A stretch of 64,000 bases of DNA from Bacteroidota bacterium (lineage in GTDB: Bacteria; Bacteroidota; Bacteroidia; Cytophagales; Cyclobacteriaceae). Both the position numbers and the translations under genes were made by a program. The stretch spans positions 2,046 through 66,045 of the forward strand of contig JBCCTI010000031.1 in the NCBI GenBank assembly GCA_039198955.1. The letters are read 5' to 3'. How positions within the stretch are numbered: the first letter of the stretch is position 1; each line of letters starts with the position of its first letter. Below, piece by piece: positions 54,300-64,000 of the stretch. Below the pieces are notes generated by a model, which was not told where the DNA came from, did no database searches, and saw only the letters and a program-made list of their open reading frames with translations.

Positions 54300-55873
54300 T
54301 TATCCGCCTTACCTTTCTGTCTCTTTGGCTGGGCTTACTTGCTTGTCAAGAATTACCTACCCTGAAAGAAGATAACCGCCCCAACATCGTCATTATCATG
54401 GCAGATGATATGGGCTATGCTGACCTGGGTTGCTTTGGCTCGGAAATCAACACACCCAATATTGACCGATTAGCTAACAACGGTCTAATAATGACTCAGT
54501 TTTATAATGCGGGTCGGTGTTGCCCTACCCGGGCGTCTTTACTGACCGGATTATACCAGCATCAGGTAGGTATTGGGCACATGGTGGGCAATATGGGTCG
54601 TCCGGCCTATCAGGGCTATCTTAATAACCAGTGCGTTACTATCGCTGAGGTGCTTAAGGAGGCAGGCTATAGCACACTGATGACCGGGAAATGGCACGTA
54701 GGCAGTGCCCGAACGCAATGGCCTCACCGACGGGGTTTTGATCGATTCTACGGTGTTCCGCGGGGCGGTGGAATGTACTATTACCCTTTCATCCAGCGTG
54801 GAAGGCGGGATGTAGTACTGGACAGCACCGAAGTTAAGCCAGATAGTGTCAATTTTTATTCTACTATCGCGTTCAACGAGTACGCAGTGAAATTTTTGGA
54901 AGAACAACGCAATTCGCCTAATCCATTTTTTCTGTATGTTGCTCATATCGCCCCCCACTTTCCGCTGATGGCGCCTGACTCAGCGGTCGCTAAATATCGG
55001 GGAAAGTATCGGGCAGGTTTTGAGCAAATTCGGCGGCAGCGTTACCAGAAAGCCCAAGAGCTTGGAATTATTCCAGAAGGACTGAGGATGTCGCAACCTG
55101 ATAGCCTGGTGTGGCAGTGGGACAGGCTAACGCCCGCTCAGCAGGATACGATGGACTTAAAGATGGCGGTCTACGCCGCCCAGGTTGATATTATGGATCA
55201 GGGCATTGGTGACATAATCAACAAACTAGAAGACCTGGGAGAGTTAGATAATACCGTTATTATGTTTCTCTCCGACAATGGGGCTACCCGCGAGTATATC
55301 GACCAAAACCCTAGTCCGGCCGATACCGCTGCGATTGGCAGTCGGTTTAGTTGGACTTCTTACACTGCTTCCTGGGCTAATGCCAGCAATGTCCCGTTTC
55401 GACTCTACAAAAGTTGGGTACACGAAGGTGGTATCGCCACTCCGTTCATCATTCATTATCCTCAGCAAATTAAACAGCACCGCATCGATCGACAGGTTGG
55501 TCACATCATTGATCTGATGGCTACTTGTACCGACTTAGCCCAAACTGAATATCCGCGGCAGTATCAAAATCAAAAAATATTACCTACCGAAGGTATTAGT
55601 CTGGTTCCAATCATTCAGGGTGACTCAGTTAACCGTACCCAACCTTTATTCTGGGAGCATATAGGTAATCGAGCTATTCGGGACAGCGATTGGAAACTAG
55701 CTGCTCCCGGCCCTAACCAAGACTGGGAACTATACAATATAGTTACCGACCGTTCTGAAACCCAAAACCTGGCTGGCCAATATCCTGAAAAAGCCACAGA
55801 ACTAGCCCAAAAATGGCAAAATTGGGCAGACCGAGTAGGAGTAGTTGCCTGGGAAGAATTGACTAGTCATTAA
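54296..55873 (+). CDS. Formylglycine-dependent arylsulfatase (lipoprotein)
   Basis: LLAC lipobox, PNIVIIMADDMG, CCPTR, GKWHVG and HEGGIATP; ATGA overlap. Confidence 0.92.
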   Translation: MIIRLTFLSLWLGLLACQELPTLKEDNRPNIVIIMADDMGYADLGCFGSEINTPNIDRLANNGLIMTQFYNAGRCCPTRASLLTGLYQHQVGIGHMVGNMGRPAYQGYLNNQCVTIAEVLKEAGYSTLMTGKWHVGSARTQWPHRRGFDRFYGVPRGGGMYYYPFIQRGRRDVVLDSTEVKPDSVNFYSTIAFNEYAVKFLEEQRNSPNPFFLYVAHIAPHFPLMAPDSAVAKYRGKYRAGFEQIRRQRYQKAQELGIIPEGLRMSQPDSLVWQWDRLTPAQQDTMDLKMAVYAAQVDIMDQGIGDIINKLEDLGELDNTVIMFLSDNGATREYIDQNPSPADTAAIGSRFSWTSYTASWANASNVPFRLYKSWVHEGGIATPFIIHYPQQIKQHRIDRQVGHIIDLMATCTDLAQTEYPRQYQNQKILPTEGISLVPIIQGDSVNRTQPLFWEHIGNRAIRDSDWKLAAPGPNQDWELYNIVTDRSETQNLAGQYPEKATELAQKWQNWADRVGVVAWEELTSH

Positions 55874-55925
55874 AATATCAGGTGTAATGAAATTAAAGAG
55901 AACCAGCTTCAACGATTAGTTCATT

Positions 55926-56393
55926 ATGTGTTTTAGAGTTACGTCGTTGGTACTGATTATTGTTAGCTTGAATTGCTGCGAAAGTAGGCGAGATTTTGAC
56001 CGCAAACTTTGGCTTAAATATAGTAATCCTAGTGGCTTGAGTAATCCGAGAGTATCCATGGTAGATGATCTAATGCAGAACTATTTGAAACCAGGTTTAA
56101 CTAGAGACTCAATAATTTCCTTATTAGGTGAGCCACAGGTAGACGGAGTAGAACAACGGCTTCCTAAAGGATTCGTTGAGCCAGATTCCATTACTTTTCA
56201 GAGTGACTCTTCCTCCAACCCTGGATATTCCGAAAGGTGGAATCAGCGGGTTAATCAGTATTTTGTCGCCCATGCCCAACCCGACACGCTTATGTCGTAT
56301 TTCGTAGGATGGTCTACCATGGATCATATGTATTTAGTTGTAAAACTTAACCCCGATAGCGTAGCTTATGATTATTGGGTAGAGCAGCACTAG
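55926..56393 (+). CDS. Hypothetical exported protein or lipoprotein
   Basis: Hydrophobic N-terminus with Cys; FD...W...R..MVDDL...L..G.T...I..LLGEP. Confidence 0.6.
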   Translation: MCFRVTSLVLIIVSLNCCESRRDFDRKLWLKYSNPSGLSNPRVSMVDDLMQNYLKPGLTRDSIISLLGEPQVDGVEQRLPKGFVEPDSITFQSDSSSNPGYSERWNQRVNQYFVAHAQPDTLMSYFVGWSTMDHMYLVVKLNPDSVAYDYWVEQH

Positions 56394-56556
56394 AAAACCA
56401 GTTAGTCTTCGCGCGAAACATGGGATTTTAAAGTTTAGATATACTCTCGTTCCAAGAACTTAAACCAAGGGAAGCAAGATCATTAATGATAAAATAGACT
56501 CCATCGGCTGATAATCATTTTTATATCTTCTGAGCATACCAGGATATCGAGGGTTC

Positions 56557-56598
56557 TGACAATCTGTCATAGCACTATGGCTTGGCATACCCATTGAT
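56557..56598 (+). promoter_or_regulatory. dnaK upstream: TGACA-N3-TGTCA palindrome plus sigma54-like TGGCA-N6-TTGA
   Basis: TGACAATCTGTCA at 56557-56569 and TGGCATACCCATTGAT at 56583-56598. Confidence 0.5.
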
Positions 56599-56644
56599 AA
56601 CGTAAGATTGATAACTTAGAACTCCAACTTTATAAAATATATTT

Positions 56645-58588
56645 ATGGGAAAAGTAATAGGAATAGATTTAGGAACAACCAACTCCTGCGTAGCAGTGAT
56701 GGAGGGCAATGAGCCCGTCGTCATTCCCAACAGTGAGGGTGGTAGGACGACTCCTTCCATCGTAGCCTTCCTGGATAACGGAAACGGCGAGCGAAAGGTA
56801 GGAAGTCCGGCAAAACGACAAGCAATTACGAATCCGCAGAACACCATCAGCTCGGTAAAGCGGTTTATGGGTAAAAAGCACTCCGAAGTCTCCGAAGAGA
56901 TGAAGAATGTCTCTTACCAGATAGAGAAAGGAAATAACGATACAGTACGGGTGAAGATTGGCGACCGCGTGTATACCCCACAGGAACTTTCGGCCATGAT
57001 TCTGCAAAAAATGAAGTCTACTGCCGAAGACTATCTCGGAACTACCGTGACCGAGGCAGTAGTAACTGTTCCTGCTTACTTCAACGATGCTGAACGTCAG
57101 GCTACTAAGGAAGCTGGACAAATTGCTGGGTTAGAGGTAAAACGGATCATTAACGAGCCTACTGCTGCAGCACTGGCGTATGGTTTAGATAAAAAGAATC
57201 AGGATCTTACCATTGCCGTGTACGACTTAGGAGGAGGAACCTTTGATATCTCGGTTCTCGAACTGGGTGATGGCGTATTTGAGGTAAAATCTACCAACGG
57301 TGATGTGCACCTAGGTGGTGATGACTTTGATGCCCGCATTATTAACTGGTTAGCCGACGAGTTTGAAAAAGAAAATAGCATTGACCTGCGGAAAGATCCG
57401 ATGGCGTTGCAACGCTTAAAGGAGGCTGCTGAGAAAGCTAAGATTGAGTTGTCAAGTGCTACTAGCACCGAGATCAATCTGCCCTACATTATGCCAGTAG
57501 ATGGTATCCCCAAGCACTTGGTACGGAGCCTGAGCCGATCTAAGTTTGAGCAGTTAGTTGATGACTTAGTACAGCGAACCCTGGAGCCTTGCCGACAGGC
57601 TATTAAGGATGCTGGAATTTCCGCTTCTGAGATCAATGAAGTGATTCTGGTAGGGGGTTCTACTCGAATTCCCAAGATTCAGGAAGAGGTAGAGAAGTTC
57701 TTCGGTAAGAAGCCCTCCAAAGGGGTAAACCCTGATGAAGTTGTAGCTCTTGGGGCAGCTATCCAAGGTGGAGTATTCAGTGGTGATGTGAAAGACGTAC
57801 TACTGTTAGATGTAACTCCGCTATCATTAGGAATTGAAACCATGGGTAGCGTATTCACTAAGCTGATTGAATCCAATACTACAATCCCTACCAAAAAGTC
57901 GGAAACATTCTCGACTGCTTCGGACAACCAGCCTTCGGTAGAGATTCACGTACTACAGGGTGAGCGGCCTATGGCTAAGGATAACCGAACCATCGGACGT
58001 TTTCACTTAGACGGAATTCCACCGGCACCCCGGGGTGTGCCTCAGGTTGAGGTAACCTTCGATATAGATGCTAACGGTATCATGAACGTATCAGCCAAAG
58101 ATAAAGGCACTGGTAAAGAACAGAAAATCCGTATTGAGGCTTCCTCGGGACTTACCGACGAGGAAATCGAAAAGATGCGTAAGGAAGCTGAGGCCAACGC
58201 TGAAACCGATAAGCAAGAGCGTGAGAAGATTGAAAAAATCAATGCTGCTGATTCGCTGGTCTTCCAAACAGAAAAGCAACTCAAGGAATTTGGTGATAAG
58301 TTGTCGGAAGGTAACAAGAAACCTATCGAAGATGCGCTTGCTGAGTTGAAAACAGCTCATCAGTCTCAAGATGTGAATGCTATTGATGCCGCTATGGAGA
58401 AGCTAAATGCCGCTTGGCAAAATGCTTCTCAGGAGATGTATCAGGCAGCTGGTGCTGACGCCTCCGGAGCTGGTGCCGACCCTACTGCTGGTGCCACTAA
58501 CGGCGAACAGGCCAGTGCCGAGAGTTCAGACGATGCTGATGTTTCTGACGTAGAGTATGAAGAAGTGGACGATAAGGACAAGCAATAA
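56645..58588 (+). CDS. dnaK: Chaperone DnaK (Hsp70)
   Basis: [33 protein letters not shown] and DVTPLSLG. Confidence 0.99.
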
Positions 58589-58619
58589 CGGTCTTCCCCT
58601 TATTCTTACCTCAGACTTT

Positions 58620-58643
58620 AAAGCCCCAATTGGGGCTTTTTTT
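58620..58643 (+). terminator. Rho-independent terminator
   Basis: AAAGCCCCAATTGGGGCTTT palindrome plus T-run. Confidence 0.85.
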
Positions 58644-59189
58644 ATTACTATTTTTCCCAGCTTATCTACTAACATAGTATTTCTTACATATCAACCATCG
58701 ATGAAATATCACCAGAGGTTTTGTAAAATTATTTCCTCTCTAGGCCTGTATTTAGCTGATTTACCCCTTCCTGAGCTTTACAATTATTTCATTCTCCGTC
58801 ATTTTATTGCCATGTAATGAAATAGGTTATTTACACCATTTTTTTTACCTGCCATTACATAGGTTTATCATAAGGATATGAGTGAAACTATCTACCAGAA
58901 ATAATTATATCTCAGTCAGTAAAATTGAAATAAGTTGCCTGATTCGTACAAAATAGTATGAGTCCATTCATTATCCACTAGTGCTAGTACAAGAGTAATA
59001 GATTGAGCAAGGCGAGCGAATAATTACGTAAGGAAAATAGATTTTCAACTGAGAATAAGTAACAGCAGCTTAACTAATATACATATTTCCTCTTTTTCTA
59101 ACATAGGTATAATACGAAACCTGCTATCAGTATAGCTATTTGAAGCTAACTTGAGCGTTAAATAGCTGTGATAGAAAGTACGTGACATT

Positions 59190-61682
59190 ATGAATACGAT
59201 TTTAACTACTATAACGGGCCTGCTCAGTGTCATTGGGATTACCCCCTACGATTACTGCTATTTTTCGCAGCCCGCTACACATTGGCTACAAACCCTACCC
59301 GACGGACTGATCAACACCGTATACTCGATTATTCCGTTTACTATCTTTTTACTTGTAGGGAAACGCCAGAGTACCCAGAGTACCAAAGCGGTGCTTTACT
59401 TATTTCTACTTTTTTCTTTGTCTAATGGGTTTATTCTACTCACTGAGATATACGCAATTTGGTATCCAACTTATCAGGTTCCTTCTTGGGTTAAAATACT
59501 TAACATTTCTGTTCTCTTCGCTACTACCTTGGGGCTGTGGCCTCACATCGTTCGGCTACTGAGAGGGACTTCTACCATCATTTCATCCCAAGTCGGTGAT
59601 GAGAGTGAAACCACCCGAGAGCGTGAGTTACAATTGCGGGAAGATAATCTGGAAGAACTGGTAAATAACCGCACTAAGGACTTAGAAAACACCTTACTTC
59701 AACTTAAGCATGAAGCCCGCGACCGACAAAGGGCACAGGATCAAGTGAAGTTCCAAACCTCCTTGCTCGATCAGGTAGATAGCAGCATCATTGCAACTGA
59801 TACTCATCGAAAAATTGTGTATTGGAACCACCATGCTGAACAATTATTTGGCTGGACAAAAGAAGAAGCCTTAGGTAGGAAAACGTCAGAATTATTCAAA
59901 GATAAACAAGCTGCTAACGAGACCTACTACCGTGAACTTATCCAAAACAATCACTGGGAGGGCGAAATTATGATGCGGCACCGTAGCAATAAAATGTTTC
60001 CGGTTTATACCAGTGCCGCGGCCCTAACGAATGAAAACGGCGACCCTATTGGCTATTCAATGGTCTGCTTTGATATGACCAATCAGGCTAAGCAAGCCAG
60101 TCGGTTGCGCCGCGATAAAGAGAAAGCCGAACGGGCGGCCTTGGCCAAACAGGACTTCTTATCTACTATGAGCCACGAAATACGTACCCCCTTAAATGTG
60201 GTGGTAAATATGGCTCGGCTACTCATGGACGAAAGCCCTCGGGCCGACCAGCTAGAATACATGAAAAGCCTGCAATTTTCGGCTAATCACCTGCTAGTTA
60301 TTATCAACGATATATTAGATTTTGCTAAAATTGAGGCTGGTAAGATCAAGCTGGAAGAAATCAGTTTCAGTCCGAGGGAGGTGGCCGAAGGTATTACCAA
60401 AGCCTTCCAGTTTCGGGCCAAAGAAAAGAATATTAGCCTCCGTCTGGATTGGGGCTCTAACATTCCCGAATATATATTAGGCGACGAAGTACGTCTTACT
60501 CAGATTCTCAATAACCTGGTTGGAAACGCTATTAAGTTCACCGAAAAAGGATTTGTGTCAGTACATACCGAGCTTCTGAGTAAGCAGCATGATAAGTACA
60601 AAATCAGATTTGAGGTACGGGATACCGGAATCGGTATTCCGGCGGACCGAATGAAGTCGATCTTTCAGGATTATACCCAGGGAGGTGATGATACTACCCG
60701 CAGGTTTGGTGGAACCGGGCTGGGGTTAACCATCTGCAAGCGGCTGATTGATATGCAGAATGGCAAACTGTCTGTTCGTAGTAAAGAAGGCTGGGGTAGT
60801 AACTTTAGCTTTGTGCTTACCTACCAACACGACGCTAAATCTGGATCGTTGGCATCGGCCTCAGCCAAAGAAAGAATTGATACGAGTAAGCTGAGCGGTA
60901 AGAAACTCTTATTAGTAGAAGACAATCCATCGAACCGAATGGTTGCCACTAGCTTTCTGGAGAAAGTAGGCATCCGGGTATCCACGGCAGAAAATGGAAA
61001 GCAGGCCATAGACAGAGTGCAACAAGAACCGTTTGATATTGTGCTAATGGATCTTCAGATGCCTGTTATGAATGGCTGTGAAGCCTCTCAGGCGATTCGG
61101 AATTTAGGTGAGGATTATCAGAAGCTACCCATTATCGCCCTCACGGCTGACGTGGTGCAAGGAGTAAAAGACCGGGTTCGTGAATGTGGCATGAGTGATT
61201 ATTTACCCAAGCCTTTTAATCCCGATGAACTACACTATAAAATCGCTCTCAATCTTGGCCTAATTTCCCCTCAGGAAGCAGACTTTGCCACAGCCGAAGA
61301 GAAGAGCGATATAATGCAGTTACATCGACTAATTGATCAGTACAACGATGACGTTAAGTTTGTAACGAACTTACTAGATTCCCTGCGCCAAAGTTTTCAG
61401 TTGCTTACTGAGCAGGTAGCTAGTTCAGCCGATCAGAAGGATGTGTATGAGTTGCGCCGTCTGACCCATAAGTTACTGCCTTCTATCAAAATGGTCGGTA
61501 ATCATGAGTTGCACACCCACCTCGATGGGTTAAAAGAGGCTCTCGCCGACGACAAAATTGACGAGGCTGAGGTTGCCCAATTGATTAAAAAGGTTCAGAA
61601 CTCGTCTACCAAGTCTATCAACTACATAGATGAGTTGGTTACTAACATGAAAGAACACAGAGGGCAGCTTACTTCTTCCTAA
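59190..61682 (+). CDS. Hybrid sensor kinase: degenerate ethylene-binding-like TM domain, PAS, HisKA, HATPase, REC and Hpt-like tail
   Basis: FLSTMSHEIRTPL, NLVGNAIKFT, DTGIG, GGTGLGL, LLVEDN, MDLQMP, KPF and L.HKL.PS. Confidence 0.9.
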   Translation: MNTILTTITGLLSVIGITPYDYCYFSQPATHWLQTLPDGLINTVYSIIPFTIFLLVGKRQSTQSTKAVLYLFLLFSLSNGFILLTEIYAIWYPTYQVPSWVKILNISVLFATTLGLWPHIVRLLRGTSTIISSQVGDESETTRERELQLREDNLEELVNNRTKDLENTLLQLKHEARDRQRAQDQVKFQTSLLDQVDSSIIATDTHRKIVYWNHHAEQLFGWTKEEALGRKTSELFKDKQAANETYYRELIQNNHWEGEIMMRHRSNKMFPVYTSAAALTNENGDPIGYSMVCFDMTNQAKQASRLRRDKEKAERAALAKQDFLSTMSHEIRTPLNVVVNMARLLMDESPRADQLEYMKSLQFSANHLLVIINDILDFAKIEAGKIKLEEISFSPREVAEGITKAFQFRAKEKNISLRLDWGSNIPEYILGDEVRLTQILNNLVGNAIKFTEKGFVSVHTELLSKQHDKYKIRFEVRDTGIGIPADRMKSIFQDYTQGGDDTTRRFGGTGLGLTICKRLIDMQNGKLSVRSKEGWGSNFSFVLTYQHDAKSGSLASASAKERIDTSKLSGKKLLLVEDNPSNRMVATSFLEKVGIRVSTAENGKQAIDRVQQEPFDIVLMDLQMPVMNGCEASQAIRNLGEDYQKLPIIALTADVVQGVKDRVRECGMSDYLPKPFNPDELHYKIALNLGLISPQEADFATAEEKSDIMQLHRLIDQYNDDVKFVTNLLDSLRQSFQLLTEQVASSADQKDVYELRRLTHKLLPSIKMVGNHELHTHLDGLKEALADDKIDEAEVAQLIKKVQNSSTKSINYIDELVTNMKEHRGQLTSS

Positions 61683-61749
61683 AAAACCTTCTACGCCTAG
61701 GTTCTTGCTTTAGTAGTATTTTCGTAGATTAGCGAAAATCACTACACCT

Positions 61750-62565
61750 ATGAACCGAATTCTTGCCTTTTTACTAACTCCCTTTTTGTTTATTGCTTGC
61801 CAGCCGCAACAAACCACCGAAGAACAAGTCGCTGAGATAGATGGTGCCAGTCTGGCCTATCCTAACCCTCCTGCTGAGGGTTTTAATGAAGCCGCCTCCG
61901 ATGAAAAAGCCATTGCGATTGCCGACAGTGTAATGCAGGCCATGGGAGGCCGCCAAGCTTGGGATACTACCCAATACGTAAGTTGGAATTTCTTCGGGGC
62001 TCGAACGTTGCTTTGGGACAAACAGTCGGGCGACGTGCGGATTGAAGTACCCCGCGATTCGGCTATCTACTTAATCAATGTGAATTCTGATCAGGGGAAA
62101 GTAGCAATGGGTGGGGAAGAGATCACTGATACTGATTCTTTATCAAAATATGTAGAGCGGGGAAAGAGTATCTGGATAAATGATAGCTACTGGTTATTTA
62201 TGCCCTTTAAGCTGAAAGACTCGGGCGTGACGCTGACGTATGCCGGGGAAGATACTATTCAGGGAGGCGCGTCCGCCGAGGTGCTCGAATTACGCTTTGA
62301 AGGCGTAGGTGTTACTCCGCAGAATAAGTATCGGGTGTACGTAGACCCCAACGACTATATGGTAGAGCAGTGGGCTTACTATCCTGAAGCCGAAATGGAT
62401 ACTCCCCGTTTCATCACTCCCTGGGCTGAATACGAAAAATACGGAGCACTCATGCTATCGGGCGACCGGGGACAACGAGATATTACCGACATTGAAGTGA
62501 TGGAAGCTGTACCAGAAGGCACGTTCTCCAGTATCGAAGAATTTCAGTTATTAAAATCATCCTGA
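61750..62565 (+). CDS. Conserved hypothetical lipoprotein
   Basis: FIAC lipobox; AD.VM.AMGG..AW, WINDSYWL.MPFKL and GVTPQNKY.VYV. Confidence 0.7.
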   Translation: MNRILAFLLTPFLFIACQPQQTTEEQVAEIDGASLAYPNPPAEGFNEAASDEKAIAIADSVMQAMGGRQAWDTTQYVSWNFFGARTLLWDKQSGDVRIEVPRDSAIYLINVNSDQGKVAMGGEEITDTDSLSKYVERGKSIWINDSYWLFMPFKLKDSGVTLTYAGEDTIQGGASAEVLELRFEGVGVTPQNKYRVYVDPNDYMVEQWAYYPEAEMDTPRFITPWAEYEKYGALMLSGDRGQRDITDIEVMEAVPEGTFSSIEEFQLLKSS

Positions 62566-63845
62566 AATACTACTTCTTGGTCTTTGTCCAGTAGACGAAC
62601 GTAATCTACTGAACCCGTACCTTGAAATCGGTACCGGATTCCGGCTACTTTTCCGGCATCCTCTTCAAGAGTAGTCTGAAAAATTAGCTGCTCATTGCGG
62701 TATACCGACAGTTGTTGTTGCTTAACTGTTAGGCGGATATGCTGCCATTCGGAAAGATTGCAGCCAAAAGCTGATAAATCCGCCCTCTGTCCCTCAAGAT
62801 ACTGTTCGCTGGCAGCTAAGTAGATTTTTCCCACACAACCAGGGATTGACCAAGGAATAGCGATACGCCCCTTTGAGCAAAGTACTGATACCTGGCTCTC
62901 TTGGCATACGGCTTCTCCCTCGCTGTAATCACTTCTGATAGCGGTTTCTAACGTAAAGTTACCGGAAGAGATTTCACCAAAGTCTTGTACATTATAGTAC
63001 GCTAACCCAGGTGCCGATTCTCCATTTAAAAAACCTAGCTGCTGTAATCGTTCGGGAGAGACCGTAAGCGTACCGTTTTGCTGGATTTTTTCATCTAAAT
63101 AATGTGGAATGGATTCATCCTCTACTAGAGCTAACCACCCATCGGAGGTGACGTATACATCGTGCTCTTTCACTACCTGCTCTTCTACCAGCAGCTTGGC
63201 TCGGAAGTAGCCTGGGTAGTAGTAAGTAGTGGTGAAAACCTTGTTATCCTTATCCACCTCTTGGCGCAATCGCGAATCCCACGACTGTTGTATTTCTATC
63301 TGATCATAAGGAAGTTTGGATACATCGTAGTGAAAAATTACCGTATTCGGTAGTCCTTCCGTAACTGGCTCACTGGAAAATGTGACTTGCGAAGTATCCA
63401 TCTCTAGCGGGCGATTAACCCAACGGTTAAATCCAAGAATTAGCAGTACCAATACCGGAATTAGTAGTAAGAGAGCTAGTTTTTTACTGACAGCCGGAGA
63501 TGTCGCTTTTTGCCTCGAAAGTTCTTTTTCAGTAGTATGAGAGACGTAAGATTGGCTTCCCACAAAGTCACGCCAGTGCTCATAGTCAGCAAACTGAGCT
63601 AAAGCATTCAGAGTATTAGTGGTGGGCTGGCTTTGGTAGTTTACTTTACCCCATAACCGCTTCAGGGTAGTAGCACTCAGTTTGGTTTGGGTTTTCTGCC
63701 AGATCCGTTCACTCAATTGCTCAAAGTCCTGGTGCGTCCATTCCTGGCTATTACCCCAGGCTACCTCATTCTCAATGATTTGCTTGAGAAGCTCTATATA
63801 GGTTGTTTCTTTGTTAGTCGCCTCCATGATGCTTGGCTGTACCAC
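62544..63845 (-). CDS. Predicted bitopic protein with an N-terminal HTH-like region and a periplasmic beta-sandwich region (start may be 63827)
   Basis: W...DF..LS..I...T...LS.TTLKRLWG...Y...TLN.LAQF..Y..W.DF; single TM; Y.YPG.F.AKL. Confidence 0.65.
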   Translation of the reverse strand: MVQPSIMEATNKETTYIELLKQIIENEVAWGNSQEWTHQDFEQLSERIWQKTQTKLSATTLKRLWGKVNYQSQPTTNTLNALAQFADYEHWRDFVGSQSYVSHTTEKELSRQKATSPAVSKKLALLLLIPVLVLLILGFNRWVNRPLEMDTSQVTFSSEPVTEGLPNTVIFHYDVSKLPYDQIEIQQSWDSRLRQEVDKDNKVFTTTYYYPGYFRAKLLVEEQVVKEHDVYVTSDGWLALVEDESIPHYLDEKIQQNGTLTVSPERLQQLGFLNGESAPGLAYYNVQDFGEISSGNFTLETAIRSDYSEGEAVCQESQVSVLCSKGRIAIPWSIPGCVGKIYLAASEQYLEGQRADLSAFGCNLSEWQHIRLTVKQQQLSVYRNEQLIFQTTLEEDAGKVAGIRYRFQGTGSVDYVRLLDKDQEVVFQDDFNN

Positions 63846-63933
63846 GAAGATAACGACTTTTTGTCTATTCTGTGATAAAGATGCAAGGCTTGTTCATAAA
63901 AAAGGGAAAGAATGAAAAGTGCGCGGAGAATGA

Positions 63934-63941
63934 TAATTTTG
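63934..63941 (+). promoter_or_regulatory. -7 element TAATTTTG
   Basis: Exact TAnnTTTG 16 nt before an ATG at 63958. Confidence 0.45.
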
Positions 63942-63957
63942 AAGTGAACTAAACAAC

Positions 63958-64000
63958 ATGATTATCATGCACACTTTTCAAAAAATGAAATTACGACCTA
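63958..64000 (+). CDS. Start of a CDS running off the window edge
   Basis: Open frame from ATG 63958 to the end of the window, downstream of a -7 box; too short to identify. Confidence 0.35.
   Translation, partial: MIIMHTFQKMKLRP

Follow-up and report, generated by a model that had tools for sequence, protein, structure and literature searches.

The window analysed here is a 64,000-nucleotide stretch of a genome of the family Cyclobacteriaceae (Bacteroidota; GenBank assembly GCA_039198955.1, contig JBCCTI010000031.1, positions 2,046 to 66,045 of the forward strand), hereafter G000. It contains a complete hybrid histidine kinase gene of 830 amino acids on the plus strand (59190..61682, stop codon included), recognised from the list of open reading frames (ORFs) and its Pfam domains; the reading frame is open throughout all 830 codons. 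The N-terminal membrane domain of the kinase is homologous to the ethylene-binding domain (EBD) of ETR1, and both residues at the positions of the ETR1 copper ligands are replaced. The domain is probably a degenerate ethylene-binding domain, kept as membrane anchor and transmission scaffold of an intact hybrid kinase.

The ETR1_N (PF25487) homology region with its three transmembrane (TM) helices covers residues 31-125 (59280..59564; this and all further features of the gene are on the plus strand). A cytoplasmic PAS domain lies at 59760..60089 (approximately residues 191-300; PAS_9 53.6, PAS 47 and PAS_4 46 bits). The kinase core at 60144..60821 consists, according to Pfam, of HisKA (residues 319-384, 64 bits) and HATPase_c (residues 431-544, 96 bits). 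Its phospho-acceptor His329 (60174-60176) is part of the H-box HEIRTP, and the remaining kinase boxes are intact as well (N446, DTGIG at 478, GGTGLG at 507). The receiver domain, residues 574-685 (60909..61244, Response_reg 97 bits), possesses Asp621 (61050-61052) and its partner Lys674. Across 14 orthologs the four kinase boxes (H, N, G1, G2) show no variation, nor do D621 and K674 of the receiver.

The C-terminal 140 residues (61260..61679) fold into a helical bundle in the AlphaFold2 model (pLDDT 84.8) and represent a probable HPt-like domain. HPt domains lead the Foldseek matches of this bundle in the PDB (Shewanella hybrid-kinase HPt 3myf, ArcB 1a0b, Ypd1, HptB), the matches being weak (E 0.014-0.1, TM-score 0.5-0.63), and Pfam Hpt (PF01627) reaches 14.9 bits, under its cut-off of 24.6. 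His760 (61467-61469), located in THKLLPSIKMVGN, is invariant in the alignment of orthologs, likewise K761. A first-pass annotation of the window had proposed a PAS-kinase-receiver-HPt-like output, and this order holds, its last element being backed by the Foldseek list, the sub-threshold Pfam Hpt match and the invariant His760. Outside the membrane domain the protein is predicted to be functional, because the signature residues of kinase, receiver and HPt-like domain are intact and invariant and two strains of the species differ mostly synonymously (see below).

The profile PF25487 matches the full protein with 51 bits (E 1.8e-13, cut-off 27) over model positions 3-96 of 97, the isolated N-terminus with 55.4 bits and the six-frame translated genome with 56.1 bits; in the six-frame search of the 7.0-Mb genome this is the sole ETR1_N match. 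The resemblance to an ethylene-binding domain is, by these scores, real homology and not chance. The first-pass annotation, which had claimed homology to ETR1-type EBDs, is upheld in this respect; the peptide it quoted is correct, and its interval 59241-59565 corresponds to residues 18-125. Hydropathy indicates transmembrane segments at residues 38-58, 65-91 and 103-124, and the AlphaFold2 model of the N-terminus contains helices at 28-58, 63-91 and 99-139 (pLDDT 74.5). The basic residues K58, R59 and K66 are located in the TM1-TM2 loop.

ETR1_N occurs in 21 genomes of a phylum-wide sample of 400, all others scoring 96-142 bits against 56 for the window. The best HMMER match of the isolated domain in a representative library of 1.84 billion proteins reaches 61.6 bits at 30% identity, and the best matches outside the genus all belong to Bacteroidota. 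A word-indexed search with residues 1-140 returns a single match, the 99%-identical protein of a second assembly of the same species. The search for related loci in named genomes yields distant kinases only, matched via their cytosolic domains, and a profile of 25 EBDs retrieves no solved EBD structure from the sequences of the PDB. Substitutions in the copper site were checked in three alignments, comprising 24 EBDs from related genomes, 13 orthologs of the genus, and 150 representatives plus ETR1. The representatives are the 150 best of 1407 family matches at E<=0.001 from the 1.84 billion proteins, and all column counts given below as x/150 refer to them.

Cu(I) in ETR1 is coordinated by Cys65 and His69 with the participation of Asp25 (Azhar et al. 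2023, PMC10266040). The window protein has Asn79 (59424-59426, AAT) at the position of Cys65, in a column with Cys in 148/150, and Leu83 (59436-59438, CTA) at the position of His69, in a column with His in 148/150. Ser76 (59415-59417, TCT) stands at the position of Ile62 (Ile in 148/150); the 3-TM orthologs of clade A all possess Ile there. All three critical positions of helix 2 are consequently lost, and the helix is now devoid of any sulfur or imidazole side chain. The region before TM1 reads PYDYC, in which Y20-D-Y22-C23 (59247..59258) is a remnant of the bacterial PHGHC motif with both His replaced and the Cys kept; among the 150 representatives and ETR1 the first His of this motif is conserved in 147/151 and the Cys in 151/151.

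Helix 1 retains all of its four residues, and helix 3 its Lys. Asp38 (59301..59303, GAC) is equivalent to ETR1 Asp25 (Asp in 145/150), Tyr45 to Tyr32 (Tyr in 150/150), Ile48 to Ile35 (Ile in 144/150), Pro49 to Pro36 (Pro in 140/150), and Lys102 in helix 3 (59493..59495, AAA) to Lys91 (Lys in 147/150). The identities of the ETR1 ethylene-binding residues, including Asp25, Tyr32, Ile35, Pro36 and Ile62, are said to go back to work of Wang and colleagues in 2006. Apart from the copper ligands, four of these five are kept (Asp38, Tyr45, Ile48, Pro49), and Ile62 is replaced by Ser76. The replacement of both ligands, as well as the retention of Asp, Tyr, Ile-Pro and Lys, had already been stated in the first-pass annotation and is found again here, the ligand changes in all three alignments; its list of losses was incomplete, since it overlooked Ser76 and the exchange of the PHGHC histidines for Tyr20 and Tyr22.

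Binding of Cu(I) and ethylene in the known way would with these residues almost certainly be impossible. The ETR1 double mutant C65S/H69A loses most of its copper binding, and the residual binding depends on Asp25; furthermore, Asp25 and Lys91 of ETR1 form a polar bridge, which is the proposed signal carrier to helix 3 (PMC10266040). As the equivalents of Cys65 and His69 are replaced and those of Asp25 and Lys91 kept, the binding half of the site is gone in the window protein and the proposed transmission pair survives.

EBDs that appear to lack copper ligands occur sporadically elsewhere. P0070 (Ser/Ser) is the only one of the 150 representatives without both ligands; P0019 (C/N) and P0126 (S/H) are missing one of them. 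The ligand Cys is changed to Gly in L030 (genome G055, another family of the order), and the ligand His to Tyr in L020 (genome G016, another genus of the family).

A single clear ortholog of the full-length kinase is present in 15/16 genomes of the genus. The gene dnaK (56645..58588, plus strand, from the ORF list) is the upstream neighbour that marks orthology across the genus, and it precedes the kinase in all cases inspected, i.e. G004, G014 and the second strain of the species. For the series of ligand states 14 orthologs were aligned, including that of the window; G014 was read separately, and G006 is counted on a weak ETR1_N match alone.

The ortholog of G004 is fully canonical, with an intact PHGHC motif and both ligands (C/H, in SCGLTH). 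In G005, G013, G012 and G001 the ligands are C/H as well, and the Cys of PHGHC is lost (R, Y, S and S, respectively). G003 possesses an eroded PHGHC, the ligand state C/Y and Asn at the position of Asp25. G015, 79% identical overall to the window protein, has an eroded PHGHC, the state C/L and Glu for Asp25. The window protein itself (N/L) has kept the PHGHC Cys, lost both His and changed Ile62 to Ser; its ligand segment reads SNGFIL against SCGLTH in the syntenic gene of G004, and the Leu at the His69 position is common to it and its sister ortholog in G015. G010 is in state S/H, its PHGHC region not being aligned. Finally, G002, G007, G008, G009, G011, G014 and probably G006 possess proteins of about 790 amino acids in which PHGHC is gone, TM1 is deleted and the ligand state is N/Y.

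Helix 2 of this 2-TM Asn/Tyr form reads L-N-A-I-L-Y, and the equivalent of Lys91 is absent (L023 in G014, L024-L026, L039-L041, L043-L045; corresponding approximately to residues 60-125 of the window protein). The form represents a stable state, because it is 77% identical within its clade, near its PAS domain at 80%, and by this comparison it is a conserved Cys/His-less subfamily. Such a subfamily had been envisaged in the first-pass annotation; it exists in the sister clade, and the 3-TM Asn/Leu form of the window stands outside it as a separate lineage seen in this species only.

A maximum-likelihood tree was calculated from the cytosolic columns only and is unrooted or midpoint-rooted, because the distant EBD kinases are only 18-20% identical and not orthologous. 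In this tree the sister of G000 is G015 (100/100), the two together branch among forms that still have their ligands, and each ligand column requires a minimum of three changes. As Cys and His are ancestral for the family, this amounts to at least three to four independent loss lineages. In the second clade the codons suggest a path from TGC via AGC, the Ser codon of G010, to AAC for Asn. The Asn codon of the window is AAT and that of the truncated clade AAC, indicating independent origins. The erosion seems to start at the PHGHC motif. Loss of the PHGHC Cys with Cys65 and His69 kept is seen in L033-L035 and L037 (G013, G012, G001, G005); this Cys may have a part in copper loading or in a disulfide.

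The ortholog of G014 (L043; G014:C8:3158276-3160576, minus strand) contains one in-frame TAG near its C-terminal part; the gene could be a pseudogene, but a sequencing error or an alignment that runs too far could also produce the TAG. A second, shorter and fully canonical EBD protein (MPHGHC...CG.TH, open frames of 397-552 amino acids; L015, L016, L017, L028, L029) occurs as a paralog in G011, G008, G009, G004 and G003, some of which have a truncated dnaK-linked copy, and is missing from the genome of the window. In its carriers, any ethylene-type sensing may have passed to this paralog.

The membrane domain of the window lineage diverges much faster than the remainder of the protein. Identity between the window protein and G015 is 48% in the EBD, 81% in PAS, 96% in HisKA, 91% in HATPase, 85% in the receiver and 81% in the C-terminal domain; within the EBD it is only 36% in TM1 and 53% in TM2-TM3. 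For this pair, Nei-Gojobori dN amounts to 0.47 over the first 125 codons and to 0.087 over the cytosolic part; the canonical pair G004/G005 has 0.116 and 0.094, respectively. The ratio of EBD to cytosolic branch length on a fixed topology is 6.1 for G000, 5.3 for G015 and 3.4 for their common stem; for the canonical branches G004 and G005 it is 1.1 and 0.9. In the window lineage and in its sister, the EBD therefore changes at 5-6 times the rate of the cytosolic part. Cytosolic dN/dS is about 0.05. Since dS is saturated between all informative pairs (>=1.6; pS 0.6-0.9), dN/dS of the EBD is usable as an upper bound only, and dN values in relative terms.

The kinase is also encoded, with 828/830 identical residues and an identical N-terminus, in a second assembly of the species (GCA_039027375.1, likewise run SRR22824308), for which reason the substitutions are not sequencing or assembly errors. 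The N-terminal substitutions involve several changed bases and no frameshift. The kinase genes of the two strains differ at 13 nucleotides, 11 synonymous and 2 non-synonymous, and both amino-acid changes fall into the receiver domain (Q634H, S669N). There are no differences in the first 265 codons, so that polymorphism is uninformative on recent selection on the membrane domain.

Gene order is equal in both assemblies (L126 / L127 against 55190-64000 of the window). The spacer between dnaK and the kinase (58589-59189) is about 600 bp long, AT-rich and without convincing ORF. The start of the kinase gene is overlapped by a probably spurious ORF of 62 amino acids on the minus strand (59045-59233). 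Downstream follow a lipoprotein-like ORF of 271 amino acids (61750-62565; weak DUF6503 match of 20.9 bits, below cut-off) and a convergent ORF of 433 amino acids (62544-63845) with a weak 3-keto-disaccharide-hydrolase-like C-terminus. Both also adjoin the kinase in the second strain. No response regulator gene is adjacent to the kinase at this locus.

The explanation we favour starts from an ancestor that would have been a canonical copper-dependent bacterial EBD kinase. Its ligand function would have been lost, the window protein being one stage of a genus-wide erosion in the dnaK-linked kinase, and the membrane domain would persist as anchor, dimerisation element and signal-transmission scaffold. 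This scaffold presumably consists of what remains, i.e. the three helices, Asp38-Lys102, Tyr45, Ile48-Pro49 and the loop E-I-Y-x-I-W-x-P-x-Y, in a protein ordered into 3-TM domain, putative helical linker, PAS, HisKA/HATPase, receiver and HPt-like domain. Regulated input would now most likely enter via the well-conserved cytoplasmic PAS domain, and phosphate would pass from His329 to Asp621, His760 and some response regulator. The decay of the membrane domain would proceed at a different speed in each species, with PAS and phosphorelay under strong selection. Loss of function with retained scaffold fits the data better than a new binding site, because of the fast EBD, the varied replacements (N/L, C/L, C/Y, S/H, N/Y) and the deletions of TM1.

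Several observations weigh against this explanation. The dN/dS of the EBD is at most about 0.2-0.3, i.e. relaxed yet not neutral. An anchor of purely arbitrary sequence might tolerate more change than that, although any hydrophobic helix is under some constraint. In helix 1 the four residues relevant to ethylene are all retained, and the Asp-Lys pair has survived. Asn arose twice at the Cys position, as AAT here and as AAC, probably via AGC (Ser), in the truncated clade. Furthermore, the truncated Asn/Tyr module is about as conserved as its PAS domain, which shows that selection can truly act on a module without copper.

These same observations feed the alternative that had been put forward in the first-pass annotation, a copper-free three-helix bundle repurposed as sensor of a hydrophobic ligand or of the membrane state; another ion may also be its signal. 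The polar network of the bundle would comprise Asp38, Asn42, Ser76/78, Asn79, Lys102 and Asn105 and would signal to the kinase. The dN/dS below 1, the kept transmission pair Asp38-Lys102 together with Tyr45 and Ile48-Pro49, the convergent change of Cys to Asn in two lineages and the stable Cys/His-less 2-TM module of the sister clade are all in line with such a sensor. However, since G000 and G015 split, the EBD of each has evolved 5-6 times faster, no newly fixed site is visible, the replacement residues differ by lineage, the deletion of TM1 in seven sister species destroys the bundle, and the 3-TM form is known from one species only. The proposal is unsupported on these grounds, and we consider it unlikely.

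A wider version holds that the copper-free forms make up a new class of modules, maintained by selection, which sense or transmit within the membrane and arose from the ethylene-binding fold. In place of the metal, the Asn at the former Cys position would organise the helices against each other; with the Asp-Lys pair where it is kept, the module would enable the kinase to respond to a cue from membrane or periplasm with no cofactor involved. We give this version little credence. If it were true, one orthologous kinase would show, within the genus, all natural steps between a gas receptor that needs a metal and a sensor that does not.

It is very improbable that the scaffold instead keeps a ligand-independent activity of the EBD fold, e.g. 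a basal cation (Ca2+) permeability without copper site. A preprint describes a basal Ca2+ current retained in ETR1 C65S with loss of its modulation by ethylene (10.1101/2025.10.20.683334), and the window protein has kept the three helices and polar Asp, Lys and Asn residues. That claim, however, is recent and concerns plant proteins, nothing shows ion conduction by any bacterial EBD, and fast divergence as well as TM1 deletion in orthologs speak against a conserved pore.

Hardly credible is a continued binding of Cu(I) and ethylene via substitute ligands such as Cys23, Asp38 or His119. Cys23 and Asp38 are present, and the residual Asp25-dependent copper binding of ETR1 C65S/H69A (PMC10266040) offers a precedent, but both ligands, Ile62 and both PHGHC histidines are gone, helix 2 has no sulfur or imidazole side chain left, and loss of Cys65 alone abolishes ethylene binding of ETR1 according to work cited in PMC10266040 and 10.1101/2025.10.20.683334. 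Least probable of all is a decay of the whole gene into an incipient pseudogene, to which the fast N-terminal divergence might point, as two strains have an open frame and differ by 11 synonymous against 2 non-synonymous changes, all catalytic motifs are intact and the cytosolic domains are 81-96% identical to G015 at a dN/dS of about 0.05.

A domain swap or horizontal replacement of the N-terminus was also considered but rejected, because the sister ortholog in G015 is still nearest to the domain (48%), outside proteins reach at most 38% identity, and the proteins of G015 and the window both begin with the seven residues MNTILTT.

Among known systems, AzoEtr1 of Azospirillum brasilense (PMC11819568) is close in layout; like the window protein it is a bacterial member of ETR1_N in which PAS and histidine kinase come after a 3-TM EBD at the N-terminus. 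Seven conserved residues mark predicted functional bacterial EBDs such as AzoEtr1 (PMC11819568). AzoEtr1 possesses all seven and binds ethylene, whereas the window protein lacks the equivalents of Ile62, Cys65 and His69 and adds a receiver and an HPt-like domain to the EBD-PAS-kinase order. SynEtr1 (slr1212) of Synechocystis is likewise a bacterial EBD kinase and a proven ethylene receptor, which shows that EBDs work in bacteria; it has a canonical copper site and a phytochrome-like photosensory module, and the window protein has neither.

With Arabidopsis ETR1 the window protein shares the EBD fold and the equivalents of Asp25, Tyr32, Ile35, Pro36 and Lys91. It differs in the PHGHC region, in the HPt-like domain on a hybrid kinase and in the lack of a CTR1/EIN2-type pathway. 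The dominant ethylene-insensitive alleles etr1-1 (C65Y) and etr1-4 (I62F), known from reports of Chang in 1993 and Hall in 1999, are said to abolish binding and to lock the receptor in the signalling state of the unliganded form. The substitutions of the window protein affect the same positions, yet are natural and fixed, not induced. By analogy, ethylene would not switch its membrane domain, which would be fixed in a single state.

Within the genus, the ortholog of G004 (locus L002/L036) agrees in gene position and architecture and is 67% identical overall; it keeps PHGHC, Ile, Cys and His (SCGLTH), in contrast to YDYC and S..N...L of the window protein. The truncated 2-TM Asn/Tyr orthologs have the same EBD-kinase origin, and like the window protein they are free of copper ligands and possess Asn at the Cys position. 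They lack TM1, hence the Asp, and also the Lys, and their TM2-TM3 part is 77% identical, unlike the fast single-species lineage of the window.

The domain family is known and the kinase is not a new kind of system; its particular feature is a natural EBD without copper ligands. In the literature searched, predicted receptors are recognised by the presence of all conserved residues (PMC6324907, PMC11819568), and the natural EBD variant noted is Asp25Asn only (PMC10266040). No account of natural EBDs missing their copper ligands was found in the literature searched. A Pfam match to ETR1_N alone does not predict an ethylene receptor, and the genome of the window is probably without any EBD-type ethylene sensing, as its only ETR1_N domain is the copper-free one.

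One orthologous kinase thus provides a graded series, from a fully canonical form through loss of the N-terminal Cys, loss of one ligand and loss of both (window) to deletion of TM1, and supplies natural negative and positive controls for binding assays. The series separates the roles of the ethylene-binding fold. The binding residues of helix 2 are lost first, and helix 3, the Asp-Lys pair and the TM2-TM3 loop, i.e. the elements of scaffold and transmission, are kept longest.

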